Origin: Verrucomicrobiota bacterium
GTDB lineage: Bacteria; Verrucomicrobiota; Verrucomicrobiia; Limisphaerales; SXTU01
Assembly (NCBI GenBank): GCA_016235545.1
Contig: JACRKB010000189.1
Coordinates: 1,863-65,862 of the forward strand
Direction of reading: 5' to 3'
Length of the DNA: 64,000 bases
How positions within the stretch are numbered: the first letter of the stretch is position 1; each line of letters starts with the position of its first letter. A program made the position numbers and the translations under genes. Positions 9,331-39,899 of the stretch are shown one piece after another. The notes under the pieces were generated by a model that saw nothing but the letters and a program-made list of their open reading frames with translations, was not told where the DNA came from and searched no databases.

Positions 9331-10188
9331 GTGAAGCCAGACCTTGTTGCGGACTGCCAGTGCGTGATTGGCGAGGGGCCGCTGTGGCACCCGACCGAGA
9401 AGCGTGTTTATTGGACCGACATCCCTGCGGGAAAAATGTTCCGCTACGATCCAGCCACTGGCCAGCATGAGCAGTTCTACGAGGGCGAGGTGGTGGGCGG
9501 ATTCACCATTCAGGCTGACGGGGGCCTGCTCTTGTTCATGGCGCGCGGCGCGGTGAAAGTCTGGCGCGATGGCAAACTCACGACGGTAATCGCAGAAATC
9601 CCCGGCGAACTCGGCTCGCGGTTCAATGACGTGATTGCCGACCCGGCAGGCCGGGTGTTCTGCGGCACGATGTCCTGCGAGGAGCACGCCGGCTCGCTCT
9701 ACCGGCTCGACACCGACGGGCGGCTCACCAAGGTGCTAGGCGGCATCGCCTGCTCCAACGGCATGGGCTTCACGCCCGACCGCCGGCACCTTTATTACAC
9801 CGACTCTTTGAAGCGTGAGATCTACCGTTTCGACTACGATGCGGCGACCGGCTCCATCGCCAACCAGCAGTTGTTTGAGCGCACGCCCCAGGGCGAGGGC
9901 TTGCCTGACGGGCTGACCGTGGACGCCGAGGGCTGCGTGTGGTCGGCGCGTTGGGACGGCAGCATGCTCGTGCGGTTCGCGCCCGATGGAAGCGAGGAGC
10001 GGCGCATCACTTTTCCGGCGAGGAAGGTCTCCAGCGCCAGTTTCGGCGGAGACGATCTCTCCGACCTGTATGTGACGACCGCTGGCGGCGACCAGCGGGC
10101 GACGGAAGGCGCGGGCGCGGGCGCGCTGTTTCGAGTGCGGTCCGGCATCCGGGGGCTGCCTGAATTTTGTTCGCGCGTCGGCCTGTGA
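9331..10188 (+). CDS. SMP-30/gluconolactonase/LRE family protein (sugar lactonase)
   Basis: DCQCVIGEGPLWHPTEKRVYWTDIPAGKMFRYDP, NDVIADPAGRVF and SNGMGFTPDRRHLYYTDS are typical SMP-30 propeller motifs. I chose the in-frame GTG at 9331 because the upstream ATG at 9118 lies inside repeat copy B. Confidence 0.8.
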   Translation: MKPDLVADCQCVIGEGPLWHPTEKRVYWTDIPAGKMFRYDPATGQHEQFYEGEVVGGFTIQADGGLLLFMARGAVKVWRDGKLTTVIAEIPGELGSRFNDVIADPAGRVFCGTMSCEEHAGSLYRLDTDGRLTKVLGGIACSNGMGFTPDRRHLYYTDSLKREIYRFDYDAATGSIANQQLFERTPQGEGLPDGLTVDAEGCVWSARWDGSMLVRFAPDGSEERRITFPARKVSSASFGGDDLSDLYVTTAGGDQRATEGAGAGALFRVRSGIRGLPEFCSRVGL

Positions 10189-10308
10189 AATCTTGTCCCT
10201 CACGTGGCCAATCGCCTACGCTGGGCCGTGCGCCCCACTAGCTGAAGGTTTTGCCATGCTCAGCAATGTCGCTCCTGAAGCATCTGCGCGCTTGAACTTG
10301 TTCTCAAA

Positions 10309-11649
10309 ATGACTGACCGCTACGCCAATTCCCGACGCCTCTTCGAGCGCGCTACCCGCAGCATCGCCGCCGGCGTGAACAGCGGCATCCGCAAGATGGA
10401 GCAGCCGGTGCCGCTCTACTTCCAGCGCGGCACCGGCTCCCGTGTGTGGGATGTGGACGGCAACGAATACATTGATTTCCAGATCGGCCAGGGCGCGCTG
10501 CTTTACGGTCATGCTCCCGCCGGCATGGCCGAGGCCATCGCGGCGCAGGCCAGGCTCGGCACGCATTGGGCCGCGCAGTCGGAGCTGGAGATCGAAGTCG
10601 CCGAGCGCTTGCAGGCGATGATTCCCTCCGCGGAACTCGTGCGGTTGAACAATTCCGCCACCGAGGCGGTGCTCTCCGCGTTGCGGCTCGCGCGCGGCCA
10701 CACGGGTCGGCCGCTCATCCTCAAGTTCGAGGGCCACTATCACGGCTGGGCTGACGAGGGCCTGGTAGGTTTCGCGCCGCCCCCGGACAAGTGGGGCACC
10801 GACGAAGCGCCGGCACGCCTGCACCCCAGCCAGGGCGTCATCCCCGAGGTGCTGGAGAAATTTGTCGTCGCGCGCTGGAACGATCCCGACCACCTGCGCC
10901 GCCGCGTCGCGGAGTTCAAGGGCCAGATCGCCGCGATCATTTTCGAGCCGGTGCTCTGCAACACCGGCTGCATGGAGCCGGTGCCCGGCATGATCGAGAC
11001 GATCCGCGAGCTGTGCGACCGCGAGGGGATGCTGATGATCGCGGACGAGACGATTACCGGCTTCCGCTTCGGCCCCGGTGGGGCGCAGAAACATTTTGGC
11101 TTCGTGCCCGACCTGACGGTTCTCGGCAAAGCGGTTGGCGGCGGCGTGCCTTTCGCCGCGTTGGTGGGCAGGCAGGCCGCTATGAGGAAGATCATTGACG
11201 GCTCGGTTGTTCACGCGGGCACGCTCAATGGCAATCCTCTCTGCCTCGCCGCGAGCAAGTGGTGCCTCGACAGCATCGCATCGCTCGGCGAGCGGCATCC
11301 GCGCGAGGTCACCGCGCTCGGCAGCCAGATGATGGCCGGACTGCGCGTGCTAGCGGACCGCCACGGCATCCCGCTGCGCCCGCAAGGGCCGGGCCTTGTC
11401 TTTCACACCGTCATGCTCAAACCCGGTGCGGCTGAAGGCACGGTTCGGGATTACCGCGACTACGTGCGCCGCCATGATGCCACACGCTGGACGCATCTTC
11501 GCCGCTGTCTGCTGGACGACGGTGTGCGGGCCATTGAGCGCGGCCTTTGGTTCATCAGCCTCGCGCACCGGCAGGCCGATGTGGCCGAGGCTTTGCAGAA
11601 GGCGGAACGCAGCTTCGCACGGCACGCGAGCGAGTGGAAACCCGTCTGA
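10309..11649 (+). CDS. Class III PLP-dependent aminotransferase family protein (glutamate-1-semialdehyde aminomutase-like)
   Basis: AAGVNSG, YFQRGTGSRVWDVDGNEYIDF, LNNSATEAV, ADETITGFR and the PLP lysine context DLTVLGKAVGGG. Confidence 0.8.
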   Translation: MTDRYANSRRLFERATRSIAAGVNSGIRKMEQPVPLYFQRGTGSRVWDVDGNEYIDFQIGQGALLYGHAPAGMAEAIAAQARLGTHWAAQSELEIEVAERLQAMIPSAELVRLNNSATEAVLSALRLARGHTGRPLILKFEGHYHGWADEGLVGFAPPPDKWGTDEAPARLHPSQGVIPEVLEKFVVARWNDPDHLRRRVAEFKGQIAAIIFEPVLCNTGCMEPVPGMIETIRELCDREGMLMIADETITGFRFGPGGAQKHFGFVPDLTVLGKAVGGGVPFAALVGRQAAMRKIIDGSVVHAGTLNGNPLCLAASKWCLDSIASLGERHPREVTALGSQMMAGLRVLADRHGIPLRPQGPGLVFHTVMLKPGAAEGTVRDYRDYVRRHDATRWTHLRRCLLDDGVRAIERGLWFISLAHRQADVAEALQKAERSFARHASEWKPV

Positions 11650-11657
11650 CGCCGGCC

Positions 11658-12059
11658 ATGAATCACCCGCTTGTTTCCCATCCTCGCGCCGCCGGGACGC
11701 CGGCTTCCCACCTTCCCTTCAGTCCATCCGTCGTGGTGGGCGACTTGATTTTCGTTTCCGGGCAAGCCTCGGTGGATGCGACGGGAAAGATCGTCAGCGA
11801 CACCTTTGACGGCGAGTTCCGCCGGTCGGTGGAAAATCTGCGTCTGGTGCTCGAAGCCGCCGGCAGCGACCTCGCTCATGTCGTGCAGACTCGCAACTAC
11901 GTCCGCGATGCGGTGGACGTGCCACGCTTCAATGAGCTCTACCGTGAGTATTTCTCCTCTCCGTTCCCCGCGCGCACGACCATCACCAACTGCCTCCCGC
12001 CCACGCTGCGTTATGAAATCGAAGCCGTCGCGGTGAGATGCCACAACCCATCACCATGA
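11658..12059 (+). CDS. ridA: RidA/YjgF/UK114 family enamine-imine deaminase
   Basis: FSPSVVVGDLIFVSGQASVD, the VQTRNYV region and ARTTI...LRYEIEAVAV are typical RidA features. ATG at 11658, 8 nt after the upstream stop. Confidence 0.8.
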   Translation: MNHPLVSHPRAAGTPASHLPFSPSVVVGDLIFVSGQASVDATGKIVSDTFDGEFRRSVENLRLVLEAAGSDLAHVVQTRNYVRDAVDVPRFNELYREYFSSPFPARTTITNCLPPTLRYEIEAVAVRCHNPSP

Positions 12060-13540
12060 CCGCCGAGAACCTTCTCAAATCATCGCTGTCGCTTGCCGCC
12101 AGCCTTCTGGTGATTGGCACCAGCCACGGTCGCGCCGCTGCCGCACCGCTGGACATCGGCTCGCGGCGCGAGCTCTTTGTGGACCGGCATCTCACCGAGC
12201 GCCTCGACCGCGTGAGCCTTCACCTGCACGAGCCGCGCGACGAAGGAGCTGTGCTGAAGTTCGATGAGCCGTGGGAGGGCCTTCACTCCGGCTATTGCAC
12301 TGTGATCCGCGACGGGGCGCAGTTTCGCGTTTATTATCGCGGGCTGCCGGTGACGGGGCGCGATGGCACTCCCAACGAAGTCACCTGCGTCGCTGAGTCC
12401 TCCGACGGCATCCGCTGGAAGAAGCCGAAGCTCGGCCAGTTCGAAGTGCGCGGCACAAAGGAGAACAACGTCGTGCTGGCCGACGCCACTCCCTTCTCGC
12501 ACAACTTCAGCCCGTTCCTCGACCCACGACCGGGCTGCCCGCCGGAGCAGCGCTACAAGGCAATCGCCGGACTCGACGGCAGCGGGCTGGCCGCATTCGT
12601 GTCCGCCGACGGGCTGCGCTGGACGAAGCTTCGCAGCGAGGCCGTCATCCCGCGCAAGGCCCCGTTCAAATTCACCCATCTGTTCGACTCTCAAAACCTC
12701 GCGTTCTGGTCCGAGTCCGAGAGGAAATACGTCTGCTACTTCCGCGTCTGGGACGGCGTCCGCCGCATCGCACGCTGCGAGAGCGCTGACTTCCTCCAGT
12801 GGAGCGACCCCGTCCTGATGGGCTACGTGACCGACGGCCAGCCATCGCCGGTCGAGGAGCTTTACACGAACCAGACCCATCCATACTTCCGCGCGCCTCA
12901 AATCTACGTCGCGGTAGCCGCGCGCTTCGTCCCCGGACGACAGGCCATCAGCGACGAGGAGGCCGCCGCGCTCCGCGTCGCCAAGGGCTACCACAAGGAC
13001 GTGTCCGATGCCGTGCTCATGACCACGCGGGGCGGCAGCGCCTACGACCGCACGTTCCTGAGCTCCTTCATCCGGCCTGGCATCGGCGCGCGGAACTGGG
13101 TCTCTCGCTCGAACTATCCCGCTTGGGGAATCGTCCAGACCGGACCGGACGAGATGTCCCTCTACACGAACCAGGACTACGCGCAGCCGACCGCCCACTT
13201 GCATCGCTACTCGCTGCGGCTCGACGGCTTCGCCTCGGTCCGCGCTGACTATGGCGGCGGCGAACTGCTCACCAAGCCGCTGCGGTTCACCGGTGCTTCG
13301 CTCCGGCTCAACTTCTCCACGTCCGCAGCCGGCTCGATTCGTGTCGAGGTTCAGGACGGGGCCGGCAAGCCGATTTCCGGTTTCGCGGCAGCCGACTGTG
13401 TTGCCGTGATTGGCAACGACACAGACCGCCCGGTGCGGTGGAAGCCCGGCGGCGACCTCGCCAAGCTCGCCGGCCAGCCGGTCCGGCTGCGTTTCGTGAT
13501 GAAGGACGCGGATGTCTTCGCGCTACGTTTCGCTCCCTAG
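12056..13540 (+). CDS. Secreted Asp-box beta-propeller glycosidase-like protein (paralog group with 19393 and 32414)
   Basis: Signal peptide, then LFVDRHL...LHEP...PWEG...FRVYYRG. Asp-box-like ESSDGIRWKKPKLG and SADGLRWTK. An ATGA start/stop overlap with ridA supports the ATG at 12056. Confidence 0.55.
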   Translation: MTAENLLKSSLSLAASLLVIGTSHGRAAAAPLDIGSRRELFVDRHLTERLDRVSLHLHEPRDEGAVLKFDEPWEGLHSGYCTVIRDGAQFRVYYRGLPVTGRDGTPNEVTCVAESSDGIRWKKPKLGQFEVRGTKENNVVLADATPFSHNFSPFLDPRPGCPPEQRYKAIAGLDGSGLAAFVSADGLRWTKLRSEAVIPRKAPFKFTHLFDSQNLAFWSESERKYVCYFRVWDGVRRIARCESADFLQWSDPVLMGYVTDGQPSPVEELYTNQTHPYFRAPQIYVAVAARFVPGRQAISDEEAAALRVAKGYHKDVSDAVLMTTRGGSAYDRTFLSSFIRPGIGARNWVSRSNYPAWGIVQTGPDEMSLYTNQDYAQPTAHLHRYSLRLDGFASVRADYGGGELLTKPLRFTGASLRLNFSTSAAGSIRVEVQDGAGKPISGFAAADCVAVIGNDTDRPVRWKPGGDLAKLAGQPVRLRFVMKDADVFALRFAP

Positions 13541-13605
13541 CCGCCATGCACTGGCCTCCTGCGACAACCTCCCGTGTTCCACTCAACTGACAGAATGATT
13601 TCGTT

Positions 13606-15093
13606 ATGAGATTTTTGGACTGGCTGGTGATCGCCGGCTACGCCGCCGGCATGCTCGCGATCGGGCGCTACTACGCATCGCAGAACAAGACCACCGAAGA
13701 CTACCTCCTCGGGGGACGGCGCATGAGTCCTTTTGCCATCGGGCTTTCGCTGTTCGCCACGCTGACCAGCTCGCTCTCCTACCTCGCGGTGCCGGGCGAG
13801 ACGATCAAGCACGGCCCCATGCTGATGTCGCAGTTCGCGTCGTTCCCGTTCATCGCGCTCGTGGTGGGCTGGGGTTTGATCCCGTTCATCATGCGGCAGA
13901 ACGTGACCAGCGCATATGCGATGCTCGAAGAACGTTTCGGCGTCAGCGTGCGGCTCGTGGGCGCGACGATGTTCCTGACCATGCGCCTGGCCTGGATGGC
14001 GACGATCCTGTATGCGACGTCCGACAAGGTTCTCGCGCCGATGCTGGGCCTGGGGCCGCAGGCAACGATCTTTGCCGCCGTGATCATGTGCGTCATCACG
14101 CTCATCTACACGGCGGAGGGCGGCTTGCGCGCCGTGGTCGTCACCGATGTCGTCCAGTCCCTGATCATGATCGGCGGCGCGTTGGCGGTGGTCCTCGTCG
14201 TCACGGTGGACTTGGGCGGCGTCTCCGCCTGGTGGCCGCATCAATGGGCCGCGCACTGGGACGCGCCGCAGTTCGGCTTCGACTCCTCCACCCGCATCAC
14301 TTTCCTCGGCATCGCCACCTCGGCCTTCGCCTGGTATGTGTGCACCTGCGGCTCGGACCAGATGGCGATTCAGCGCTGGCTCTCCACGCGCGACGCGCCC
14401 GCAGCCCGCAGGTCCCTGTTCACCACGCTCGTTGCGGAAGCCATCATCGGCCTCCTGCTGGGACTGGTCGGCCTCGCGGTGGTGGGCTACTTCACCGCGC
14501 ATCCAGAACACTTCACAAGCTCCGCCAACCTCGTCACCTCTGCGGACCGGCTTTTCCCGCGCTTCGTCATGGTCGGCCTGCCAGCGGGAATGACCGGGCT
14601 GATCATTGCGGCGGTGCTGGCCGCCGCGATGTCCAGCCTGTCGGCGGGGATGAACTCCTCGTCCTCGGTGATCACGGAGGATTTCATCGCGCGTTTCCGA
14701 TCCGCGCCGATGACCGACACCGCCCGCATGAAGCTGGCGCGGCTCCTCTCCGTGGGCATCGGCGTCACCGTGATACTGCTCAGCCTGCTGGTGAGCCAGA
14801 TTGAGGGCAACCTCGTGGATGTTTGCTACCGCGCCATCAACCTGCTGACCGCGCCGCTCTTCGTGCTCTTCTTCATGGCCATCTTCGTGCGCTGGGCCAC
14901 GACGTTCGGCGCGCTGATGGCGGGGCTGGCAAGCGTGGTCACGGCGGTGTGCATCGCCTTCTCAGGGCCGCTGGGTCTTCCTCCCGTCAGCATCATGTGG
15001 ATCATGCCGGGGTCTTTCGCCACCGGCGTCATCTGTGGAAGCATCGCCAGCCTGCTGCCCATCGGCTCCCGGTCCAAGGCTGGACAGTCGTAA
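13606..15093 (+). CDS. Sodium:solute symporter (SSS/SSF) family transporter
   Basis: Polytopic hydrophobic protein. The N-terminal YLLGGRRMSPFAIGLSLFATLTSSLSYLAVPGE is characteristic of the SSF family. Confidence 0.85.
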   Translation: MRFLDWLVIAGYAAGMLAIGRYYASQNKTTEDYLLGGRRMSPFAIGLSLFATLTSSLSYLAVPGETIKHGPMLMSQFASFPFIALVVGWGLIPFIMRQNVTSAYAMLEERFGVSVRLVGATMFLTMRLAWMATILYATSDKVLAPMLGLGPQATIFAAVIMCVITLIYTAEGGLRAVVVTDVVQSLIMIGGALAVVLVVTVDLGGVSAWWPHQWAAHWDAPQFGFDSSTRITFLGIATSAFAWYVCTCGSDQMAIQRWLSTRDAPAARRSLFTTLVAEAIIGLLLGLVGLAVVGYFTAHPEHFTSSANLVTSADRLFPRFVMVGLPAGMTGLIIAAVLAAAMSSLSAGMNSSSSVITEDFIARFRSAPMTDTARMKLARLLSVGIGVTVILLSLLVSQIEGNLVDVCYRAINLLTAPLFVLFFMAIFVRWATTFGALMAGLASVVTAVCIAFSGPLGLPPVSIMWIMPGSFATGVICGSIASLLPIGSRSKAGQS

Positions 15094-15115
15094 TCACGCT
15101 CGGACCGGAACCGCC

Positions 15116-17461
15116 ATGCCGCTCCAGCTCGTCACGCAACTCACCGACACTGACCGCCGCCTGCTCGTCCGTGCGTCGGATGGATTCGTGCCGGAGCAAG
15201 TGTTCGACATCCACGCGCATCTGTTTCACTCGCGCCATTTCGCCGCCGGCAATCGCCCGGCTTTTTTGGATGAGAATCGCGGCTATGGCGTGCGTGACTT
15301 CGACGAAGCGATGGCCCGCTGGATGCCGGGCCGCACGGTGGAAGGCTTGTTCTTCGGCTATCCAAGTCCGGGCAACAATCGCGCCGGCGAGAACGCCTGG
15401 CTGAACGAGCAAGTCAGCCCGCTCGCCGGCAACACGAACTCCCGCGCGCTCGTGCTCGCCGCGCCCACGGATGACCCGGCGGAGGTTCGCCGGCTGTTGG
15501 CGACCGGCGTCTTTGTCGGCATCAAGCCGTATCGTCTCTACGCTGACGTGTCGGACACGCGCGAGGCGGCGATTGAATCCTTCGCGCGCGAATGGATGTG
15601 GGAGGCCTGCCATGACCACGATGGCGTGATGGTCCTGCACATCATGCTCGCCGATGGCATCACCGACCCGCGTAACGTCGAGGCAATCCGCCGCCTCTGC
15701 CGCCGCTACCCGCGCTGCCGGCTCGTGCTCGCGCATATCGCGCGCTCGTTCAACTACCGCCACGCACGCGATGGACTTCATGCCGTCGCGGACCTCGACA
15801 ACGTGGTCGTGGACACCTCCGCGGTGACACAGGCCGGTGCTTTTCGCGCCGCCTTGGAAATCCTCGGCCCGCGCCGCGTGCTGTGGGGCAGCGACTACAT
15901 GGTGAGCGAGCTGCGCGGCTCGTGCATTTCGCAGGGCGATGGCTTCACCTGGATTTACTCGGAAGACGAATCCGCGCAGAAGCTCACCATCTTCGGCAGC
16001 TACACGCTCGTCGGCATCGAGTCGCTGCTGTGCCTGCGCGAAGCCTGCGACGACACGGGCATGACGACCGCCGATGCGCGGGACATTTTTCACGACAACG
16101 CGCTGCGCCTCCTCGCACCTCATCTGCGCGCCGAAATCCGTCCCGTCGCCGCCAGCGGTCCCGAGCTGTGGTCGCAGGCGAAGACGAAAATCTCCTGCGG
16201 CACCGGACTGCTCTCCAAGCGCGCGCACCTGTTCGACCCGGTTGAATGGCCGTCCTATTTCTCGCGCTGCAAAGGCGCGGACATCTGGGACACGCAGGGG
16301 CGGCGCCTGACGGACTTCACCGGCGGAGTCGGAGCCATCCTACTCGGCCACGCGGATGAGGATGTGAACCGCGCGGTCGTCCGGCGCGTGTCGCACGGCA
16401 CCTACTGCACGCTCGTCTCGCCCGATGAGCCTGTGCTCGCGGAGCAACTCCTCGCCCTGCATCCGTGGGCCGCGCGTGTGCGCTACGCGCGCGGCGGCGG
16501 CGAGGCGCTCTCGCTCGCCGTTCGCATTGCCCGCGCGGCCACGGGCAAGAGCGGCATCGCCTTCTGCGGTTACCACGGCTGGAGCGATTGGTATCTCGCG
16601 GCCAATCTCGCCGATGACAAATCGCTCGATGGCCACCTGCTGCCCGGCCTCACGCCGCTCGGTGTGCCGCGCGAACTCGCCGGCACGGCGGTGCCGTTTC
16701 GCTACAACGACCCCGCGTCGTTCCGCGAGGCCATCACAAAGCTGGGCGGCAACTTCGCCGCCGTCGTGATGGAACCAATGCGCTCCGAGTCGCCGCGCGA
16801 CGGCTTTCTGCAAAACATCATCGCTGAGTGCCAGCAGCGCGGCGCGGTCTTTGTTCTGGATGAAGTCACCAGCGGCTGGCGCTACGGCTTTCCGGGCGCG
16901 TCACCGGGACTCGGCATCGAGCCGGACATCGCCGTCTATGCGAAGGCGATGAGCAACGGCATCCCCTGCGCCGCCATCGTCGGTCGCGCGAGCGTGATGG
17001 ATGCCGCGAACGAGAGCTTCATCTCCAGCAGCTACTGGACGGACGGCATCGGCCCCGCCGCCGCGCTGGCGTGCATCGGCAAGATGCAGCGGCTCGGTGT
17101 GCAGGCGCGTGTGTGGGCGCTCGGCGAACGGATGCAGCAAGGCTTGCGCGACATTGCGGCCCGTCATCCCGCACTGAACATCAAGGTCGGCGGCCAGCCC
17201 TGCGCGCCGTCGTTCGCCTTCGGTCTCGGTGACGACAGCGCGGCGGCAAAGGCGCTGATGATTCGGGGGATGCTGCACCGGCAATTCCTTTTCAGCAGCC
17301 AGCTCTACGCCATGTGGCCGCACAGCGAGGCGATGATTGCCGACATGCTTTCCGCGTTGGACGAGGTGCTCGTCGGCCTCGATGAGTTGCACGAGCGCGG
17401 CACCTTGCGCGCGGTGGCGGGGCCAGCCGTCGTCCCCGCAGGCTTTGCCCGGCTCGCTTGA
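15116..17461 (+). CDS. Fusion protein: amidohydrolase_2 (metal-dependent hydrolase/lactonase-like) domain plus class III PLP aminotransferase domain
   Basis: The N-terminal half has VFDIHAHLF (HxH), VLAHIARS and WGSDY, typical of the amidohydrolase TIM barrel. The C-terminal half has GAILLGHAD, the GYHGWSDWYL region, LDEVTSGWR and the PLP lysine context DIAVYAKAMSNG. Confidence 0.75.
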   Translation: MPLQLVTQLTDTDRRLLVRASDGFVPEQVFDIHAHLFHSRHFAAGNRPAFLDENRGYGVRDFDEAMARWMPGRTVEGLFFGYPSPGNNRAGENAWLNEQVSPLAGNTNSRALVLAAPTDDPAEVRRLLATGVFVGIKPYRLYADVSDTREAAIESFAREWMWEACHDHDGVMVLHIMLADGITDPRNVEAIRRLCRRYPRCRLVLAHIARSFNYRHARDGLHAVADLDNVVVDTSAVTQAGAFRAALEILGPRRVLWGSDYMVSELRGSCISQGDGFTWIYSEDESAQKLTIFGSYTLVGIESLLCLREACDDTGMTTADARDIFHDNALRLLAPHLRAEIRPVAASGPELWSQAKTKISCGTGLLSKRAHLFDPVEWPSYFSRCKGADIWDTQGRRLTDFTGGVGAILLGHADEDVNRAVVRRVSHGTYCTLVSPDEPVLAEQLLALHPWAARVRYARGGGEALSLAVRIARAATGKSGIAFCGYHGWSDWYLAANLADDKSLDGHLLPGLTPLGVPRELAGTAVPFRYNDPASFREAITKLGGNFAAVVMEPMRSESPRDGFLQNIIAECQQRGAVFVLDEVTSGWRYGFPGASPGLGIEPDIAVYAKAMSNGIPCAAIVGRASVMDAANESFISSSYWTDGIGPAAALACIGKMQRLGVQARVWALGERMQQGLRDIAARHPALNIKVGGQPCAPSFAFGLGDDSAAAKALMIRGMLHRQFLFSSQLYAMWPHSEAMIADMLSALDEVLVGLDELHERGTLRAVAGPAVVPAGFARLA

Positions 17462-17480
17462 TTGCCAAAAACAAAACACC

Positions 17481-20916: not shown

Positions 20917-20965
20917 ACCAACTCGCCATTCATTTTGTCAGAGTGAGGCACCAATAATCACCAAC

Positions 20966-22567: not shown

Positions 22568-22622
22568 GACACTGACAGGATGAGTTCCGAAACACGTCCA
22601 AAATGCCGCCCACATCACCATC

Positions 22623-24122: not shown

Positions 24123-24128
24123 CCCGCC

Positions 24129-25574: not shown

Positions 25575-25580
25575 CGCGCC

Positions 25581-28174: not shown

Positions 28175-28179
28175 GTAAG

Positions 28180-30164: not shown

Positions 30165-30178
30165 AAAAGCCGATTCCT

Positions 30179-30199
30179 CTGGTCACATATTGCGACCAA
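30179..30199. promoter_or_regulatory. Candidate GntR-type operator CTGGTC-N9-GACCAA in a divergent promoter
   Basis: Same half-sites and same 9-nt spacing as 7883-7903, with 11 of 12 half-site bases identical. It lies 15 nt upstream of the minus-strand operon start and 83 nt upstream of the plus-strand aldolase start. Confidence 0.4.
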
Positions 30200-30281
30200 G
30201 AGCTTGGGTTTGCTCGCGGCAACCAGATGGGGGAGGATGCCCTCCCAGAAAGATCGAAACCAAAGCGCGACGCCTCCAGTC

Positions 30282-31106
30282 ATGAGAAAATCGAAAATCC
30301 TCGCCAAGCTCCGCTCCGGCAAAGTCGCCCGCGTCGCCTGCACCGGCTCGCCCATCTGCATGTTCCCGGCGCTCGCCGCACACTTCCACTACGACGGCGT
30401 CTGGGTGGACGCCGAGCATCGCACCTGGGATCCGCACGAGGCGCAGGCCATGATCGCCAATCATCATGCGGCGGACATTGACTGCCTCTGGCGCGCGGTG
30501 ACGAAGGAGAAGACGGCGCTTTACCGACTCCTCGAGGAAGGCGCATCCGGCCTTATGATTCCCCATGTCGGGACGCCGGATGAAGCGCGTGCCCTCGTGC
30601 AGGCCGTGAAGTTTCCGCCGCTGGGCGACCGTGGCCTGTGCGGCGGCGGACGCGACGCGAACTTCTGGGTCGGTGCGCCGAAGGACTACACCACGCAGGC
30701 GAATCGCGAGACATTTCTCACGGTGCAAATCGAGACGCCGGAAGCGCTCGCCAACGCCGAGGCCATCGCCGCCGTGCCGGGCGTGGACGTGCTTTTCATC
30801 GGTCCCGGCGACATGTCGTTGCGGCTCGGCTGCACCGCCGCTGTCAGCGATTCGAAGATGCTGGAGGTGCAAAAGCAAATCGCCGCCGCCTGTCGCAAGC
30901 ACGGCAAGGCCTGGGGCCGTCCCGTGGGCACGGCTGACGACGCGCGCACCATCATTGAACTGGGCGCACAACTCGTGGTTCTGGGCAGCGAGTTTGGAGC
31001 CTTGCACAAGCATCTGTCCGAATGCTCCGACCAGTTCGATGGCTTGCTCGACGAAAAGGCCGGCGCACCCGCAACTCCTCTTCCGGCGACCGGCAGGACC
31101 TACTGA
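30282..31106 (+). CDS. HpcH/HpaI family class II aldolase (second copy)
   Basis: MRKSKILAKLRSGK, DGVWVDAEHRTWD, LMIPHVGTPDEARALVQAVKFPPLGDRG, VQIETPEALANAEAIAAVPGVDVLFIGPGD. Confidence 0.8.
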   Translation: MRKSKILAKLRSGKVARVACTGSPICMFPALAAHFHYDGVWVDAEHRTWDPHEAQAMIANHHAADIDCLWRAVTKEKTALYRLLEEGASGLMIPHVGTPDEARALVQAVKFPPLGDRGLCGGGRDANFWVGAPKDYTTQANRETFLTVQIETPEALANAEAIAAVPGVDVLFIGPGDMSLRLGCTAAVSDSKMLEVQKQIAAACRKHGKAWGRPVGTADDARTIIELGAQLVVLGSEFGALHKHLSECSDQFDGLLDEKAGAPATPLPATGRTY

Positions 31107-31111
31107 GCACC

Positions 31112-32350
31112 ATGAACCCCTGGCACATCCTCACCGCAGTCACGATTTCCGTTGCGCTTCATTCAAGCCTTCCCGCCGCCGAGGCTCCCGCCTTCGACAT
31201 TAAGCTCGACACCATCAGCACCGGCTTCGACAAGAAATCCTGCTGGGTGCATCCGCGCGCTGGCACCATTCCGGGGGCGGTGCCGAAGGTGGTGCTCACG
31301 ATGCAGAAGGCGATGCTCGTGGGCAGCGACATTTTTTATGCGCTCAACGAGATGCGAACCGATGACCTCGGCAAGACTTGGTCCGGCCCCGTTGAGCACA
31401 CCGCGACGCTGGGCCGCCGCGATGAACCGAATGGCGTCGTCGTGGCGGCGAGCGACTTCTGGCCCAAGTGGCACGCGAAGTCCGGCAAGCTCCTCGGCAT
31501 CGGCCACAATGTCCGTTATCAGAACAACAAGGTCATGCCCGCACCCGTCCGTTCGCGCGAGACGGTCTTCTCCATCTACGACCCGGACAAACGCGCTTGG
31601 ACCGCCTGGGAACCGCTGGCGATGCCGGACGAACCGCGCTTCTTCAACTCCGGTGCCGGCTGTGTGCAGCGGCTCGACCTGCCCGACGGCGATATTCTGC
31701 TGCCGGCATATTTTTCGGCGAAGGGCGGCAAATTCAGCCGCGTTGCCGTGCTGCGCTGCGGCTTCGACGGACAGAAGCTCAGCGTGAAAGCCGTCGGCAA
31801 CGAGCTCAGCGTGGACTCAGATCGCGGTGTGCATGAGCCGTCACTCACGAAGTTTCGGGGCCGATATTATCTGACCATCCGCCACGACCAGCGCGCCTAC
31901 ATCACCACCAGCGGCGATGGGCTGAACTACGGCGCGCTCAAGCCTTGGACCTGGGACGACGGCTCCGACCTCGGCAGCTACAACACGCAAGCGCACTGGG
32001 TCACGCACGACGAGGCGCTGTTCCTTTGCTACACGCGGCGCGGCGCGATGAACGACCACATCCCGCGCAATCGCGCGCCGCTGTTCATCGGCCAAGTGGA
32101 CCCGGAGAAGCTCCACGTCCTCCGCGCCACCGAGCGCGTGCTGATGCCGCAGCGCGGCGCGAAGCTCGGCAACTTCGGCATCACCGAGGTGAATGAAAAT
32201 GAAACCTGGGTGACCGACGCGGAATGGATGCAGACCAGCGGCCCGAACTACGCCGACTTCACACAGTGCACGAAATACGGTTCGGACAACGCGGTGTTCG
32301 CCGCGCGCATCCAATGGAAGAAGCCCAACACGACTTGGAACCAGCGCTGA
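31112..32350 (+). CDS. Secreted sialidase-superfamily-like beta-propeller (degenerate Asp-boxes), paralog of 50934-52190
   Basis: Signal peptide. One clear Asp-box-like element (TDDLGKTWSGP) and partial ones (SGDGLNYG). There are long conserved blocks shared with 50934-52190: EPSLT.F.GRY.LT.R, GSYNTQ.HW, YTRRGA.NDHI.R.RAPLF, RGA.LGNFG. Confidence 0.5.
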   Translation: MNPWHILTAVTISVALHSSLPAAEAPAFDIKLDTISTGFDKKSCWVHPRAGTIPGAVPKVVLTMQKAMLVGSDIFYALNEMRTDDLGKTWSGPVEHTATLGRRDEPNGVVVAASDFWPKWHAKSGKLLGIGHNVRYQNNKVMPAPVRSRETVFSIYDPDKRAWTAWEPLAMPDEPRFFNSGAGCVQRLDLPDGDILLPAYFSAKGGKFSRVAVLRCGFDGQKLSVKAVGNELSVDSDRGVHEPSLTKFRGRYYLTIRHDQRAYITTSGDGLNYGALKPWTWDDGSDLGSYNTQAHWVTHDEALFLCYTRRGAMNDHIPRNRAPLFIGQVDPEKLHVLRATERVLMPQRGAKLGNFGITEVNENETWVTDAEWMQTSGPNYADFTQCTKYGSDNAVFAARIQWKKPNTTWNQR

Positions 32351-32413
32351 AGCCACGAATCCAACTATCCGGGCACTTCGCCAGCTTGACCCGGTTTCAA
32401 TGACTCAACTCGC

Positions 32414-34072
32414 ATGACCAAGATTTCCACTCTCCTCTGCCGACTCCTTGGCGCGATCTTGTTGCCGCTGCTTGAGGGGTTGGGATTCGCGGCTGAAAAG
32501 CAACCTGACATCACCATGCTCGGGCAGCGTGTCGAGCATCGGGCCACACTGCTGGCGATTGATGATGCGTCGTTGCCGTTGCGAAAGAACCTGGGGCTTT
32601 ACTTGAGCAAGCCCAAGGTGCGCGCCGAGGCCGTGTTGAAACCCAGTTCGTTCGGCAGCGGCGCGCCGGATGATCTCGCGGCGCACTTCTATGGCACCGT
32701 GCTGCAGGACGGCGACAAGTTCCGCATGTGGTATTACGCCTGCCATTGGGGCAAGAATCCTGACTGGTCGCCGCGCCTGATGCAGCAGGTGGCGAAGGCT
32801 TCCTACGGCCCGCTTTACCAAGGGCCGCTGTGTTACGCCGAGAGTGACGACGGCATCACCTGGAAGAAGCCGGAACTCGGGCAGGTGCTCTTCAAAGGCA
32901 GCAGCAAGAACAACGCGCTCGCCCTGCCGCACACGGTGGTCAGCGGTGCAATCGTCATCAAGGACGCCGCCGACCCGAATCCGGCTCGACGCTACAAGAT
33001 GACCTACCAATTCTTCCCCGAGTTCAGCCAGCCCACCGTCGCGGAATACGGCCGTCAACCTTCGGTGGCGCTGGCCGTGTCGCCTGATGGCTTGAAGTGG
33101 CAGGTGATCGGCATTCCGTTTCGCAATCAGTTCGTCGAGCCGTCCAGCTTCGTCAAACACGCGGGTCACTACGTCATTCACTATCAGGCGGCGGGCAGCT
33201 TGGGCGGCTACTTTGCGGAAGGTGGCACGTCCAGCGGACGGACCGGAGTGGCGCGCATCACCATGGATTTTGCGCGCTGGCCCGACGCGCTCGCTGAGGC
33301 GTTCGCGCTGGCCGAGCCCGAGGATAAATCCAAACGCGGCTTGAGTGGCGACTACGATCAAGCGCATCTCGGTGTCGGCGCGGCCAGCTTTGGCAACGTC
33401 TGCGTCGGCCTCTACGGTCTCTGGCACAATGCGAATTTCAGCCAGGCATTCGATCAAATCTCCTGCGACTTCGGCCTGCTCGTCTCCAACGACGGCGTGA
33501 AGTTTCGTGAGCCGGTGAAAGGCCACCGCTTCCTGCGTCGGGAGGACTCACTGGTCACACCCGTGCCAGGTCGCGACTTCAACACCATCCTCTGCCAGGC
33601 CAACGGCATCCTCAACGTCGGCGACGAGACGCGGATATACCACGGTCGCTGGCGCAACGCGGCCAAACGTGCCGAGAAGGATGATCTCAAGCATTACTAT
33701 GCCGAGGTCGCCCTGGCCACGCTGCCGCGAGATCGCTGGGGCGCGCTAGGGCTTCATCCGGGTGCCAATGAAGGCACCGTGTGGACTGCGCCCATGACGA
33801 TCAACAAGCCCGGATGCGAGGTGACGCTCAATGCCGATGGTGTGCAAGGCATGAGCGTGGAGATCGCCGACGGGAGCTTCGCACTGTTGCCAGAATACTC
33901 CGGCGCCAACGCGGGAATCGTCTCCGCCAAGGACGGGCTCGATTGCCAGGTGAAATGGCCCAAGGCCAGCCTCGATGCACTGGTCGGCAAGACCGTGCGC
34001 CTGCGCTTTCAACTGAAGAAGGGCGACCATGTCGAGCCTCGACTCTTTGCCGCGCATGTGACCGTCGAGTAG
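32414..34072 (+). CDS. Secreted Asp-box beta-propeller glycosidase-like protein (paralog of 12056 and 19393)
   Basis: Signal peptide. FRMWYYACHW, ESDDGITWKKPELG, SPDGLKWQV, VSNDGVKFRE. The C-terminal ~100 aa look like a beta-sandwich tail, as in 19393. Confidence 0.55.
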   Translation: MTKISTLLCRLLGAILLPLLEGLGFAAEKQPDITMLGQRVEHRATLLAIDDASLPLRKNLGLYLSKPKVRAEAVLKPSSFGSGAPDDLAAHFYGTVLQDGDKFRMWYYACHWGKNPDWSPRLMQQVAKASYGPLYQGPLCYAESDDGITWKKPELGQVLFKGSSKNNALALPHTVVSGAIVIKDAADPNPARRYKMTYQFFPEFSQPTVAEYGRQPSVALAVSPDGLKWQVIGIPFRNQFVEPSSFVKHAGHYVIHYQAAGSLGGYFAEGGTSSGRTGVARITMDFARWPDALAEAFALAEPEDKSKRGLSGDYDQAHLGVGAASFGNVCVGLYGLWHNANFSQAFDQISCDFGLLVSNDGVKFREPVKGHRFLRREDSLVTPVPGRDFNTILCQANGILNVGDETRIYHGRWRNAAKRAEKDDLKHYYAEVALATLPRDRWGALGLHPGANEGTVWTAPMTINKPGCEVTLNADGVQGMSVEIADGSFALLPEYSGANAGIVSAKDGLDCQVKWPKASLDALVGKTVRLRFQLKKGDHVEPRLFAAHVTVE

Positions 34073-34096
34073 TTGTCACCCAGAAGTGATCCAGCC

Positions 34097-34972
34097 ATGG
34101 ACTTCCACAAATATCTCCGTCACATCACTTCTGCCACGCTGCTTGTTGTCCTCATGGCGTCGTGTTCCCAAGCGGCGGAAACAAAAGCGCCGATGCAAAT
34201 GCTCCGCACGCCTGGCAACGTCCGCTTCGGCATCATCGGCGGGCAGACGGGGGCGATGTCTGCGACGTTGCTCGTGGTGGCGATGAGCATCGAGGACATG
34301 CAGCGCGAACCGGTGTTCACTGAAGTGTCCCGGCTCCTGGTTGAGCAGGGATTCCTGAGCATTGTTATTGAGCCTCCGTGTCACGGCGAAGATCGCAAAC
34401 CTGATGAGCCGGATGGACTCGCGGGTTGGCGTCATCGTCTTGATCGCGATGAGAACGTGGTGCAATTGTTCAACACCAAAGCGCGGGCGGTGCTTGACCA
34501 TGTCATCGCCCAAGGCCTTGCCGATCCCGGTCGCGTCGCCATCTGCGGGACTTCGCGCGGCGGTTTCCTCGCCTTCCACTTCGCCGCCAGCGAACCCCGG
34601 ATCAAAGCCGTCGCTGGTTTTTCGCCCGTTTCTGATCTGCAGGGCTTGACCGAGTTCAAAGGCGCGGCGACCGGCAGTCTTGCTGAAAAGCTGGCGCTGA
34701 GGCACATCGCTCCGCAACTCATCGGTAGGCCAGTGTGGTTGAGCATCGGCAACCACGACGGGCGAGTGGACACCGACAGTGCCATCGCCTTCACTCGCGC
34801 GCTCGTTCATGCGAGCGCCCGGCAGAGCAAGGAGGCGAAACCACTGATTCCAGTCGAGTTGATCGTCGCTCCGACTGCGGGCCACTCCAAAATCGATCAC
34901 GCCCACGAACTCCTCGCCGCCTGGTTGGCGAAAGTAATGCCGCCCATTCCACCCGCACCTAAACACCAGTAG
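34097..34972 (+). CDS. Secreted alpha/beta hydrolase (dienelactone hydrolase/esterase-like)
   Basis: Signal peptide with ASCSQA. Nucleophile elbow VAICGTSRGGFLAF (G-x-S-x-G). C-terminal AGHSK supplies a candidate catalytic His. Confidence 0.65.
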   Translation: MDFHKYLRHITSATLLVVLMASCSQAAETKAPMQMLRTPGNVRFGIIGGQTGAMSATLLVVAMSIEDMQREPVFTEVSRLLVEQGFLSIVIEPPCHGEDRKPDEPDGLAGWRHRLDRDENVVQLFNTKARAVLDHVIAQGLADPGRVAICGTSRGGFLAFHFAASEPRIKAVAGFSPVSDLQGLTEFKGAATGSLAEKLALRHIAPQLIGRPVWLSIGNHDGRVDTDSAIAFTRALVHASARQSKEAKPLIPVELIVAPTAGHSKIDHAHELLAAWLAKVMPPIPPAPKHQ

Positions 34973-34975
34973 TCC

Positions 34976-35935
34976 GTGAAAAAGCGCTATCGCCCCTGCG
35001 TCCTCGCCACGTGCTGTGTGCCGTGGCGTGAGAACGACACCTTTGCCGAGGACATCTTCCGCCGCTCGGTGCGCCACCTCATCGCGCATGGCATAAACGA
35101 CCTCTACACCTTCGGCACAGCGGGCGAAGGCTATGGCGTCACTGAAAGACAATTCGACGAGGTCACCTGCGTGTTTCTCGATGAGACTCGCGGTGATGGC
35201 GTGCAGGGCATGGTGGGTCTCATCAGCCTTTCGCTGCCGACCGTCATCGACCGCATCGAGCGGGCAAGAGGAATGGGCGCGCGGCGATTTCAATTGAGCC
35301 TACCAAGCTGGGGCGCGCTGAGTGACGCAGAGATGAGGACGTTCTTTCGCGAGACCTGCGGACGTTTTCCCGACTGCGAATTCCTGCACTACAATCTCAT
35401 GCGCACCGGCCGCATCATCACAGGCACCGATTATGGCCGCCTCGCCGCGGAGCATCCCAATCTCGTCGCCACCAAGAACAGCACGGCGGACGAGCAGCGG
35501 CTGCGCAGCCTCATGCAGGACGCGCCGCAGCTCCAGCACTTCATCACCGAGGCGGGATTCGCCAAGGCTGCCGAGCTTGGTGAATGCGGGCTTCTCATCT
35601 CCTTTGCTTCCTCGAATCCGGCTCTGGGGCTGGAATACTTCCGCGCCGGGCACGAACGAAACTTCACCTTGCTCCGCGAGATCGAGCAGGAACTCAGCGT
35701 CCTGGCGTCCGACCTGGTGGCAACCGTTGCGGGCGGCGCGCACATGGACGGTGCGTTCGACAAGATGTTCTGCCGCCTGCACGATGCCGGATTTCCTCTG
35801 CGCCTTCTGCCGCCTTATGCGTCCATAAGTGACGAGACCTTTCAGCGCTACGCGGAAGTTTTGCGCACGAAGCATTCACGCTGGATGCCTGAGTGTGCAG
35901 TTGCAGCAAGCCAAACAATCGCTTGCGGAGGCTGA
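34976..35935 (+). CDS. DapA/NanA (DHDPS) family class I pyruvate aldolase
   Basis: GTG start. TFGTAGEGYGVT matches the GT(T/A)GE motif. NLVATKNSTAD provides the Schiff-base lysine context. Length ~319 aa. Confidence 0.65.
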   Translation: MKKRYRPCVLATCCVPWRENDTFAEDIFRRSVRHLIAHGINDLYTFGTAGEGYGVTERQFDEVTCVFLDETRGDGVQGMVGLISLSLPTVIDRIERARGMGARRFQLSLPSWGALSDAEMRTFFRETCGRFPDCEFLHYNLMRTGRIITGTDYGRLAAEHPNLVATKNSTADEQRLRSLMQDAPQLQHFITEAGFAKAAELGECGLLISFASSNPALGLEYFRAGHERNFTLLREIEQELSVLASDLVATVAGGAHMDGAFDKMFCRLHDAGFPLRLLPPYASISDETFQRYAEVLRTKHSRWMPECAVAASQTIACGG

Positions 35936-36020
35936 CCGGCCATTGAACCGCGTGACACATACACCGCCCTTTCCTGGCCGAGCAAGCCCGTGAGCAAACG
36001 ATGCAGCGGACAATCCCACC

Positions 36021-36803
36021 ATGAACACGAATCCGTTTGATTTGACCGGCCAGGACCACTGGGTCGTCGGGGGCGCGGGCTACCTTGGACAGCCAATCGT
36101 GAAGTTGCTCGCGAGCCTCGGCGCGCGGGTGTTGTGCATCGACATCGAAGATCGGGCGGTGAATTTTATCGAGAGCGCCGGACTGGCTTCTCAAGTCACC
36201 GCTGGCCGGATCGATGCGAATGACACCGAGGCCGCGCAGCAGTTTGTCGCGTCGCAACTCTCCACGCGCGGTGTGCCGCACGGTTTGGTGATGATGAACT
36301 ACGCCTCCACGGCGAAACGGCTCGAAGAGCTTTCGGCGGAGGACTTTGACCGCGTGAACCACGGCAATCTCACCTCAACCTTCATGTTCGCTCGCGCCGT
36401 CGCCACTGCGATGCGCGGCGAGAAGCGCGGCTCCGTGGTGCTGTTCTCCAGCATGTATGGCAGCGTCGCGCCCGACCCTGCGATCTACCGGGCGCCGCAG
36501 ACGCCGAACCCGATAGAATACGGCGTCAACAAGGCGGGCATCCAGCAGATGGCGCGCTACCTGGCGATGCACTTCGGTCCCGACGGCGTGCGCTGCAACG
36601 CGATCTCTCCCGGCCCGTTTCCAAACCCGGAATCGCAGCGCGTGAATACGCACATGATCGCGAGCCAGAATCTCAAAGTGCCGCTCGCCCGCATCGGCCA
36701 GGCGGAGGAGATCGCGGGCGCGGTCGCCTTCCTCGTCAGCGATGCCTCGACCTATGTCACTGGCATCAATCTCCCCGTGGATGGCGGCTGGACGGCTTGG
36801 TGA
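36021..36803 (+). CDS. SDR family oxidoreductase
   Basis: VVGGAGYLGQPIV glycine-rich loop, YGVNKAG (YxxxK), C-terminal ASTYVTGINLPVDGGWTAW. Confidence 0.85.
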   Translation: MNTNPFDLTGQDHWVVGGAGYLGQPIVKLLASLGARVLCIDIEDRAVNFIESAGLASQVTAGRIDANDTEAAQQFVASQLSTRGVPHGLVMMNYASTAKRLEELSAEDFDRVNHGNLTSTFMFARAVATAMRGEKRGSVVLFSSMYGSVAPDPAIYRAPQTPNPIEYGVNKAGIQQMARYLAMHFGPDGVRCNAISPGPFPNPESQRVNTHMIASQNLKVPLARIGQAEEIAGAVAFLVSDASTYVTGINLPVDGGWTAW

Positions 36804-38607: not shown

Positions 38608-38614
38608 TCCTGCC

Positions 38615-39889: not shown

Positions 39890-39899
39890 AACGCCGCTG

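Follow-up and report, generated by a model that had tools for sequence, protein, structure and literature searches.

The window analysed here is a stretch of 64 kb of high-GC DNA (~63%), a fragment of a metagenome-assembled genome (MAG) from Verrucomicrobia; the rest of the genome lies outside our view. Between positions 9331 and 36803 it carries a group of catabolic genes, which an earlier note had described as a locus for the breakdown of amino sugars that uses neither a kinase nor a dehydratase. In the reading that we favour, and to which we give about an even chance of being right, this region is a rearranged and expanded form of a conserved verrucomicrobial operon whose products would break down an N-acylated amino sugar oxidatively, without phosphorylating it. 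Acidic glycans of bacteria or of a host, sialic-acid-like or other, are the probable source of this sugar. What is observed is which gene families are present, that kinases and dehydratases are missing from among them, and that synteny and catalytic motifs are conserved.

Three genes of the plus strand open the region. The first encodes a sugar lactonase of the SMP-30/gluconolactonase type (9331..10188; Pfam SGL, E-value 2e-74), which among solved structures is closest to regucalcin/SMP-30 (6e-42) and to 7plb, a protein of the Smp-30/Cgr1 family. The second, AT3, is a class III pyridoxal phosphate (PLP) enzyme that resembles glutamate-1-semialdehyde aminomutase (GSAM) and D-phenylglycine aminotransferase (D-PhgAT) (10309..11649; Pfam Aminotran_3, 7e-53): its motif LGKAVGGG contains the Schiff-base lysine, and its nearest structures include the C-6' aminotransferases 7lm0 and 7lld (~3e-37), the GSAM-like 4zm3, and D-PhgAT. 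The third, 8 nucleotides downstream, is an imine/enamine deaminase of the RidA type (11658..12059; Pfam Ribonuc_L-PSP, PF01042, 2e-23; 80 bits for TIGR00004 against a cut-off of 106.25). The arginine of its motif PARTT aligns with the arginine of E. coli RidA and would be the carboxylate-binding residue expected for 2-imino-acid substrates. Divergent from these catabolic genes stands a regulator with a GntR helix-turn-helix domain and a periplasmic-binding-protein-type domain (6794..8152, minus strand; Pfam GntR and Peripla_BP_3), the true start of which is probably near 7870-7930.

The neighbourhoods of AT3 were compared over 80 genomic loci around homologues of 10309, cited here by their L numbers, and over further contigs. 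More than 100 orthologues at 78-93% identity are found in Verrucomicrobia, the closest relatives being MAGs of Limisphaerales, and 10309 turns out to be the orthologue of the first gene of operons of the form AT3-M81-RidA: in Verrucomicrobia, the genes after an AT3 orthologue (70-93% identical) are nearly always an M81 (MlrC-like) amidase and, behind it, RidA. In a set of 23 loci where AT3 shares 58% identity or more with 10309, M81 occurs in 17 and RidA in 14; an SDR is found in 11, an Amidohydro_2 as a stand-alone gene in 9, and an MFS transporter in 8. Loci L083 and L084 read AT3-M81-RidA-Amidohydro_2-SDR-MFS-Kelch, and L004 has in addition an HpcH aldolase.

That genes across the region, and outside it, cooperate is best supported by their orthology to one such operon, L168, of a close relative. 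There, a divergent GntR regulator precedes a single operon, AT3-M81-RidA-SDR-BNR_2+GDSL-(158 amino acids)-Amidohydro_2-SDR-MFS-HpcH-AKR. Six of these genes have orthologues in the window, dispersed from 6.8 to 54 kb: the regulator (6797-7861, minus strand, 62% identity; identity to the L083 regulator is 53%), AT3 (10309, 89%), RidA (11658, 87%), the first SDR, SDR1 (36021, 62.5%), HpcH (30282, 75%), and the BNR_2+GDSL protein (52200, 79%), the last five all on the plus strand. This spread argues that the window is, as far as orthology can tell, a scattered and remodelled copy of an operon of the L168 type. More generally, given the synteny conserved in related genomes (L168, L083/L084, L004, and the loci described below around a fused gene), the clustering of the region's genes is not due to chance.

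Coding frames in the window were called from the length of open reading frames (ORFs) and the GC content of third positions. Pfam and NCBIfam scans then covered 51 ORFs over the 64 kb, of which 50 are likely genes and one is an ORF in an alternative frame (30183-31013, minus strand); 23 coding sequences (CDSs) lie within 9331-36803 and the 28 further ORFs elsewhere. All the families that had been named by eye in the region were recovered by Pfam: SGL, Aminotran_3 twice, RidA, SSF, Aminotran_4, SDR twice, HpcH twice, Gfo twice, and DHDPS, the last one weakly. Not mentioned in the earlier note were the genes at 17478 (PhyH), 18227 (beta-helix), 20966 (multicopper oxidase), 22623 (PQQ-like propeller) and 34097 (alpha/beta hydrolase). 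The region is transcribed in three directional blocks, 9331-26501, 26589-30164 and 30282-36803. In the first, on the plus strand, intergenic gaps are at most 120 nucleotides and several genes overlap by 1-4 nucleotides; within the minus block, starts, once refined, overlap the stops of the genes before them. The tight packing that had been reported is thus real, and there is therefore no room in the region for a hidden gene.

Among the scanned ORFs, no ROK, FGGY, PfkB, phosphotransferase system (PTS) or phosphosugar-enzyme family was found, and no dehydratase of the enolase superfamily (MR_MLE), IlvD/EDD or UxaA families, so that the claimed lack of these enzymes holds at the level of hidden Markov models. 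The same scans gave no match to PALP or to any fold-type II PLP dehydratase, the only PLP families present being Aminotran_3 and Aminotran_4. Five CDSs of the region have no Pfam family (12056, 19393, 24129, 31112 and 32414), and four of the five are secreted and glycosidase-like, three resembling GH32/GH43 and one having the GH33 sialidase fold. A kinase or dehydratase hidden among them was ruled out for 12056 and 31112 by structure prediction and Foldseek, which return glycosidase-like propellers, and for 19393 and 32414 because both are paralogues of 12056; for 24129, neither Pfam nor NCBIfam gave a match. Just outside the region, 37489 and 39900 have no Pfam match. As annotated, L168, L083/L084 and other related operons are also without kinases and without enolase- or IlvD-type dehydratases.

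A second group of genes is organised around a fusion (15116..17461, plus strand) that joins a metal-amidohydrolase domain of the Amidohydro_2 family, AH2 (Pfam, 2e-20), to a second class III PLP domain (Aminotran_3, 1e-36), in which the motif YAKAMSNG contains the lysine. Full-length homologues, 37-80% identical, were collected from 80 metagenome loci and also occur in Lunatimonas and Cyclobacterium. Neighbours within 8 kb were counted over the 56 loci that have 6 kb or more of flanking sequence: 33 of them contain an HpcH, Gfo or SDR gene, HpcH being the commonest type of enzymatic neighbour (17 of the 56), and a gene of the 12056 family is present in 23; PhyH, SSS, beta-helix and 31112-like genes recur. 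AT3, by comparison, is near the fusion in only one of the 56. In L092, L100 and L109, the fusion keeps company with the SDR-HpcH-Gfo-Gfo block of the window, at 62-77% identity, and in two Bacteroidota loci, L044 and L047, an AT3 paralogue, PhyH, SSS and the fusion are together. The minimal unit, found in marine contigs (L148), is a GntR(FCD) regulator beside overlapping HpcH and fusion genes. As a side observation, L111 has an MttB-family (trimethylamine methyltransferase-like) gene at 10657-12069 that adjoins a fusion locus with an AKR and a stand-alone Amidohydro_2.

The AH2 domain (window 15116-16165) keeps D31, H33, H35, K137, H175, H207, R210 and D260 invariant in 18 sequences, down to 25% identity. 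The resulting pattern HxH-K-H-H-D is typical of metal-dependent amidohydrolases. The invariant set looks like a binuclear-metal signature, with no close solved relative. The family counts about 730 clusters at 50% identity, many of them stand-alone proteins of 330-350 residues; the fusion thus unites what are elsewhere separate enzymes, an argument for consecutive steps. The stand-alone Amidohydro_2 of L083 was considered as a close relative of the fused domain, and the comparison says that it is not. A sequence search of the PDB with the AH2 domain gave nothing useful, and a profile search reached only remote relatives, namely the uncharacterised hydrolase 3cjp (6e-6), gamma-resorcylate decarboxylase (2.5e-5) and the fuconolactonase 4dlf (0.012); no close relationship to characterised lactonases of the LigI/fuconolactonase type was found in it. 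Of the two lactonases that had been proposed for the region, then, SMP-30 stands at the level of the family, and AH2 is not established as one. Judging from its invariant residues, AH2 may be a deacylase rather than a lactonase.

The other enzymes of the region surround this fusion. Upstream on the plus strand lies a sodium:solute symporter, SSS (13606..15093; Pfam SSF, 4e-43; TIGR00813, 199.5 against a cut-off of 184), and downstream a PhyH-family Fe(II)/2-oxoglutarate dioxygenase (17478..18230; Pfam PhyH, 2e-34) that co-occurs with the fusion elsewhere and has 6zyk, SnoN, EvdO2 and EctD as nearest structures. PhyH may be an oxidative deaminase resembling KanJ, an idea that was considered here; no entry named KanJ is found among its PDB matches. 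At the end of the plus block, a class IV aminotransferase of the branched-chain or D-amino-acid type (25581..26501; Aminotran_4, 7e-34) has NCBIfam matches that are all below cut-off and a 68% identical orthologue directly after the fusion in L134. The minus block consists of a Gfo/Idh/MocA oxidoreductase that is IolG-like (29142..30164; three Pfam domains; TIGR04380, 86 bits against a cut-off of 355), a divergent Gfo/Idh/MocA oxidoreductase (28180..29145, start refined; Pfam N-terminal domain, 3e-9), an HpcH/HpaI class II pyruvate aldolase (27365..28174; 8e-24) and, as its last gene, an SDR dehydrogenase (26589..27368; adh_short_C2) whose ATG at 27368 overlaps the HpcH stop; it is this block that L092, L100 and L109 conserve. 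The plus strand then carries a second HpcH/HpaI aldolase (30282..31106; 3e-26), orthologous to the aldolases of L168 and L004 (70% identical to the latter), a divergent class I aldolase of the DHDPS/NanA family (34976..35935), and the SDR orthologous to SDR1 of L168 (36021..36803), for which the matches are generic SDRs, none of them named N-acylmannosamine dehydrogenase. The DHDPS match is weak (43.9 bits against a cut-off of 22.1, 1.6e-11), and the best PDB match is 5c54 (2e-8); the motifs GTAGE, YN, and a lysine in VATKNS can be recognised by eye. Both HpcH proteins and this one keep, again by eye, the motifs that active aldolases should have.

The spread of the operon's genes could be read in another way: the 27 kb of the region might be a patchwork of independent neighbouring operons acting on several substrates, in which case the lack of kinases and dehydratases would be uninformative, since other parts of the genome would encode those steps. 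The three directions of transcription fit a patchwork, and so does the fact that the SGL-AT3-RidA genes and the fusion with its partners are rarely together; nothing ties the multicopper oxidase, the PQQ-like propeller or 24129 to the pathway, and only 64 kb of the genome are visible. However, it is the orthologues of the single operon of L168 that are spread over 6.8-54 kb, the two Bacteroidota loci L044 and L047 unite genes of both groups, the fusion stays with the SDR-HpcH-Gfo-Gfo block in L092, L100 and L109, and the annotated relatives lack the same kinases and dehydratases. We regard the patchwork as very improbable.

If the region is indeed one pathway for an N-acylated amino sugar, the reactions might run as follows; every substrate and reaction, and the order of the steps, are put forward conditionally. 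The secreted proteins, that is three GH32/43-like propellers, a GH33-fold protein, a beta-helix protein and esterases, would liberate the sugar, which would be imported by the SSS transporter (an MFS transporter in relatives). A Gfo/Idh/MocA or SDR dehydrogenase would oxidise it at C1 to a lactone, where relatives have an AKR and a Kelch mutarotase, and SMP-30 would open the lactone (a stand-alone AH2 in relatives). The N-acyl group would be removed by a metal amidohydrolase, here most likely the fused AH2 domain, and M81 or AstE in relatives. A GSAM/D-PhgAT-like class III enzyme could then convert C2-NH2 to C2=O, by transamination or by elimination of water, and RidA would hydrolyse any imine that is released. 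Finally, HpcH or DHDPS-type aldolases would split a 4-hydroxy-2-oxo acid into pyruvate and an aldehyde, the latter handled by an SDR or AKR redox enzyme. In outline, namely oxidation, lactone opening, PLP-dependent removal of nitrogen with RidA, and aldol cleavage, the pathway seems plausible in view of the comparison of genomes; elimination and transamination by the class III enzymes fit the data equally well, and the choice between them is conjecture. Isomerisation of a 2-amino-aldose to a 1-amino-ketose by a GSAM-like enzyme was also considered, and set aside as no evidence supports it.

The scheme of the earlier note was more specific: a free hexosamine, SMP-30 and AH2 as lactonases, class III enzymes that carry out alpha,beta-elimination in the manner of D-glucosaminate dehydratase (EC 4.3.1.9), with RidA, to give an acid like 2-keto-3-deoxygluconate (KDG), and the aldolases. 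All the families it needs are present, no dehydratase turned up in the scans, and its pairing of AT3 with RidA is conserved in 14 of the 23 loci, with a RidA that keeps the arginine for 2-imino acids. By their Pfam annotation, the operons of L083, L084 and L168 have no other PLP enzyme able to generate an imine, the minimal HpcH-fusion unit suggests that the PLP domain makes the substrate of the aldolase, and a class III ammonia-lyase is known (PbfA, see below). Against this, the scheme has no deacylase step, yet the orthologous operons pair AT3 with an M81 amidase, and often with AstE; the residues of AH2 suit a metal amidohydrolase no less than a lactonase, and its best solved relatives are uncharacterised hydrolases and decarboxylases; and nothing separates elimination from transamination. 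What survives of the scheme is its catabolic outline free of kinases and dehydratases, which the L168 synteny bears out; missing from it is the N-deacylation that natural N-acetyl sugars require. Nor does a free hexosamine look like the right substrate: the sialidase-rich context points to sialic-acid-like sugars or N-acyl-hexosamine products. In its exact form, we thus find the scheme improbable.

The pairing of AT3 and RidA itself must be read with care. In the window, the M81 gene is absent from between AT3 and RidA, unlike in L168 (4032-5504) and L083 (11349-12812), and a secreted glycosidase-like gene, 12056, overlaps the RidA stop. Distant versions of the cluster come from Bacteroidota, Niabella among them, and from two MAGs, one labelled Chloroflexi and one of Bryobacterales. 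They carry DHDPS, BNR_2, a deacylase of the AstE/AspA type, SDR, PALP, RidA, M81, SGL, AKR, AT3 and MFS; in Niabella drilacis (L040, 404-12571), the order is DHDPS-BNR_2-AstE/AspA deacylase-SDR-PALP-RidA-M81-SGL-AKR-SDR-AT3-MFS, and L027, L036, L068 and L069 are further cases. Since M81 comes between AT3 and RidA in the orthologous operons, and RidA follows PALP in Bacteroidota, the adjacency of AT3 and RidA in the window says little in favour of AT3 as the maker of an imine. The two deacylases and two PLP enzymes of the Bacteroidota cluster would suit a sugar with two N-acyl groups.

The same cluster opens the door to a different role for the class III enzymes: they could be ordinary sugar-amine transaminases, similar to the aminoglycoside C-6' aminotransferases, acting on the C3, C4 or C6 amine of a di-amino or deoxy-amino sugar that has been deacylated. 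The hexose moiety of acids of the pseudaminic or legionaminic type would be an example. Any elimination of the alpha-amino group would be left to another enzyme, and PhyH, Gfo and SDR would process the keto-sugar. C-6' aminotransferases, the GSAM-like 4zm3 and D-PhgAT are among the nearest structures, and the amines that class III enzymes attack do not normally lie next to a carboxylate. The Bacteroidota clusters with AstE and M81, and with PALP and AT3, would match a doubly N-acylated sugar; two class III enzymes, one class IV enzyme, and a PhyH whose nearest structures act on sugar moieties are found in the window; and the context is rich in sialidases. However, the window has no PALP enzyme, the compact verrucomicrobial operons with one PLP enzyme still keep RidA, and searches of the literature found no catabolic pathway for such sugars that could serve for comparison. 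We consider this role doubtful.

It is useful to set the favoured reading, oxidative catabolism of an N-acylated amino sugar, beside systems that are already known. Non-phosphorylative routes of the Weimberg/Dahms, L-rhamnose and L-fucose types use a sugar 1-dehydrogenase (Gfo/Idh/MocA or SDR), a lactonase (SMP-30 or Amidohydro_2) and an HpcH- or DHDPS-family pyruvate aldolase whose substrate is a 2-keto-3-deoxy acid, and no ATP; they need an aldonate dehydratase, either of the enolase superfamily or of the IlvD type. At the level of families, the window has the counterparts (two Gfo, two SDR, SGL, two HpcH and a DHDPS). It lacks the aldonate dehydratase, and is not a classical route of this kind for that reason; it has instead PLP enzymes, RidA and amidohydrolases, which imply a nitrogen-bearing substrate.

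A closer parallel is the ong pathway of Pseudoalteromonas prydzensis for GlcNAc1A, an oxidised chitin sugar, which comprises the SSS importer OngIT, the cytoplasmic D-aminoacylase OngB, the PLP enzyme OngC annotated as a D-amino-acid deaminase, the RidA protein OngD, essential for growth on GlcNAc1A, and KdgK, the product being the 2-keto-3-deoxy acid KDG (PMC9537276). Both systems would handle an N-acyl-amino sugar acid without prior phosphorylation, by means of an SSS importer, a metal amidohydrolase as deacylase, PLP-dependent deamination and RidA; SSS 13606 matches OngIT at the family level only. The differences are as many. Neither the OngC-type nor the PALP family was found in the window. 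OngB is cytoplasmic, whereas the window's only D-aminoacylase is secreted and distant, relatives using M81 and the window Amidohydro_2. The ong pathway ends with a kinase, whereas no KdgK, PfkB or other kinase family was found by the scans of the window, which has three aldolases; and ong starts from a sugar already oxidised, whereas the window encodes dehydrogenases and a lactonase. Because it has no homologue of OngC or KdgK, the system of the window is not a member of ong, and would be a non-homologous analogue that ends in aldolases and not in a kinase.

That a class III fold can catalyse an elimination is chemically credible from PbfA, an (R)-1-hydroxy-2-aminoethylphosphonate ammonia-lyase. 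This class III enzyme, annotated as a transaminase and found via its gene context, carries out a 1,2-elimination on a vicinal amino alcohol with release of ammonia (PMC8154272). It differs in belonging to a GABA-AT-like and not a GSAM-like subgroup, in its phosphonate substrate, and in having no RidA partner; the fusion scores 86.6 bits for the PbfA family, where the cut-off is 525. The GSA mutase HemL is a poor fit as well: against its model TIGR00713, with its cut-off of 527.3, AT3 scores 324.9 and the fusion 165.5, and for AT3, HemL was rejected also on NF000818 (345.2 against 398) and on its catabolic context.

With Nan catabolism of sialic acids, finally, the window shares sialidase-fold proteins, a sialidase-GDSL fusion, a Kelch/NanM-like protein, an SSS transporter and a member of the DHDPS/NanA family, although a very divergent one. 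NanK/ROK, NanE, NagA and NagB families were not found in the window; dehydrogenases, a lactonase, PLP enzymes and RidA are there instead. In the literature on the catabolism of pseudaminic and nonulosonic acids, on mannosaminate, on M81 with aminotransferase and RidA, and on glucosaminate with RidA, no description of this gene set was found.

Several points weigh against the favoured reading. The window has no orthologue of five members of the L168 operon (M81, the stand-alone AH2, the second SDR, MFS and AKR), and the stand-ins proposed for L168 enzymes (SGL, the fusion and SSS) are assumptions. AH2 is remote from solved structures, decarboxylases and fuconolactonase included, and for none of the region's proteins does an NCBIfam equivalog score above cut-off. 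RidA adjoins the fold-type II PALP in the Bacteroidota versions, where the source of the imine may not be a class III enzyme, and the amine on which a class III enzyme acts is usually not in the alpha position to a carboxylate (PMC8154272). The multicopper oxidase, the PQQ-like propeller, PhyH and the class IV aminotransferase have a place in no step, and kinases or dehydratases could sit elsewhere in the genome, outside the 64 kb.

One may be tempted to go further, and to see in these clusters an ATP-independent route for sialic-acid-like sugars across Verrucomicrobiota, Bacteroidota and MAGs labelled Chloroflexi and Bryobacterales, in which an aldolase splits the nonulosonic acid, the N-acyl-hexosamine is oxidised to the aldonate, M81 or AH2 deacylates it, a GSAM-like class III enzyme acts on it as a 2-amino-aldonate ammonia-lyase, and RidA is obligatory; the released sugar may be ManNAc or a di-N-acyl-deoxyhexose from acids of the pseudaminic or legionaminic type. 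Such a route, which we deem unlikely, would replace both the Nan/Nag kinase route and the classical sugar-acid dehydratase. The module itself is widespread and entirely uncharacterised. Were the favoured reading true, it would give functions to the GSAM-like class III family, to the AH2/class III fusion of many metagenomes, to the M81 'MlrC-like' amidases that occur outside microcystin degradation, and to a propeller family of more than 7600 members; the label 'glutamate-1-semialdehyde aminomutase', which these genes routinely receive, would have to be corrected. Verrucomicrobia, Planctomycetes and Bacteroidota of soil and freshwater would also have a way to recycle amino sugars and acidic glycans, bacterial or from a host, that is independent of phosphorylation, with a bearing on carbon and nitrogen turnover.

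We now turn to the secreted proteins of the region, all encoded on the plus strand. The gene that overlaps RidA, labelled unkA (12056..13540), encodes a GH32/GH43/GH130-like beta-propeller with a beta-sandwich; it has no Pfam or NCBIfam match, and more than 7600 homologues in Verrucomicrobia and Planctomycetes. Its AlphaFold2 model (pLDDT 77) is closest by Foldseek to GH32 endo-inulinase/levanase and to GH43 (4e-10), and also to GH130 and GH117 propellers. Two paralogues, each 24% identical to it (alignment A1), are at 19393..20916 and 32414..34072: a gene of the first type is directly upstream of the fusion in 18 loci, and an 80% identical orthologue of the second is beside the fusion in L154. 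The gene at 31112..32350 encodes a protein with the GH33 sialidase fold, homologues of which carry BNR_2. Its AlphaFold2 model (pLDDT 89) is a six-bladed propeller that Foldseek matches to bacterial sialidases (TM-score 0.6-0.73, 2e-12), with a sequence identity of ~12%; the alignment A3 has many invariant Arg, Tyr and Glu residues. Sequence searches of the PDB with 12056 and 31112 gave nothing useful. Around two homologues, one of 12056 in a planctomycete (L165) and one of 31112 from Verrucomicrobia (L166), there are sialidase-like, Gfo, AKR and Amidohydro_2 genes, and not the full module.

Between PhyH and the second propeller, a secreted right-handed beta-helix protein (18227..19393) matches Pfam Beta_helix marginally (25.8 against a cut-off of 25.9) and has orthologues, 66-70% identical, beside the fusion in L089, L092, L097 and L109. 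Three genes further on are a multicopper oxidase exported by the twin-arginine pathway (20966..22567, start refined; Pfam Cu-oxidase_3, Cu-oxidase_2 and TAT_signal), a secreted PQQ-like beta-propeller with an EF-hand (22623..24122; PQQ_2, EF-hand), and a secreted protein of 481 residues (24129..25574) with no Pfam or NCBIfam family; a pair like the last two, 83% and 57% identical, adjoins the fusion in L106. A secreted alpha/beta hydrolase of the esterase or dienelactone-hydrolase type (34097..34972; Pfam Peptidase_S9, DLH) precedes the DHDPS-like aldolase.

Outside the region, the BNR_2 sialidase-like protein fused to a GDSL esterase (52200..53948, plus strand; Pfam BNR_2, Lipase_GDSL_2) is the last gene of a second glycan block, at 42188-53948, which includes a GH20b-domain protein (42188), a BNR_2 protein (45343), an AXE1 esterase (47541) and a Kelch/NanM-like mutarotase (49840), interleaved with four CDSs without Pfam family (43875, 46343, 49215 and 50931). 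Acidic, sialic-acid-like glycans are the theme of the window's glycan proteins. A D-aminoacylase-like protein with a signal peptide (62376-63947, Amidohydro_3), which had been suggested as a side branch of the pathway, is ~25 kb from the locus, with housekeeping genes in between, such as those for GcvT (56798) and a response regulator (60379), so that its role in a cytoplasmic pathway is doubtful; no protein of this type was found inside 9331-36803. A TetR regulator (36903) is upstream of the genes at 37489-42191, which comprise a secreted protein of 372 residues and a protein of 763 residues, both without Pfam family, and, between them, a Gfo/Idh/MocA protein with a TAT signal (38615).

On the left side of the window, a stand-alone protein with a 3-keto-disaccharide hydrolase domain (PF06439, by Pfam) is at 5037-5771; some homologues of 31112 (P0323, P0346) carry this domain as a fusion, it is also found upstream in L044, and its recurrence hints at a link to 3-keto-glycoside chemistry. 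Six genes with the prepilin-type N-terminal methylation motif, three of which also match DUF1559, occupy 98-5009 and 7998-8726: five are in tandem upstream of the catabolic locus, and one is between the regulator and the SMP-30 gene. Similar genes are also near the fusion in L148, L118 and L128.

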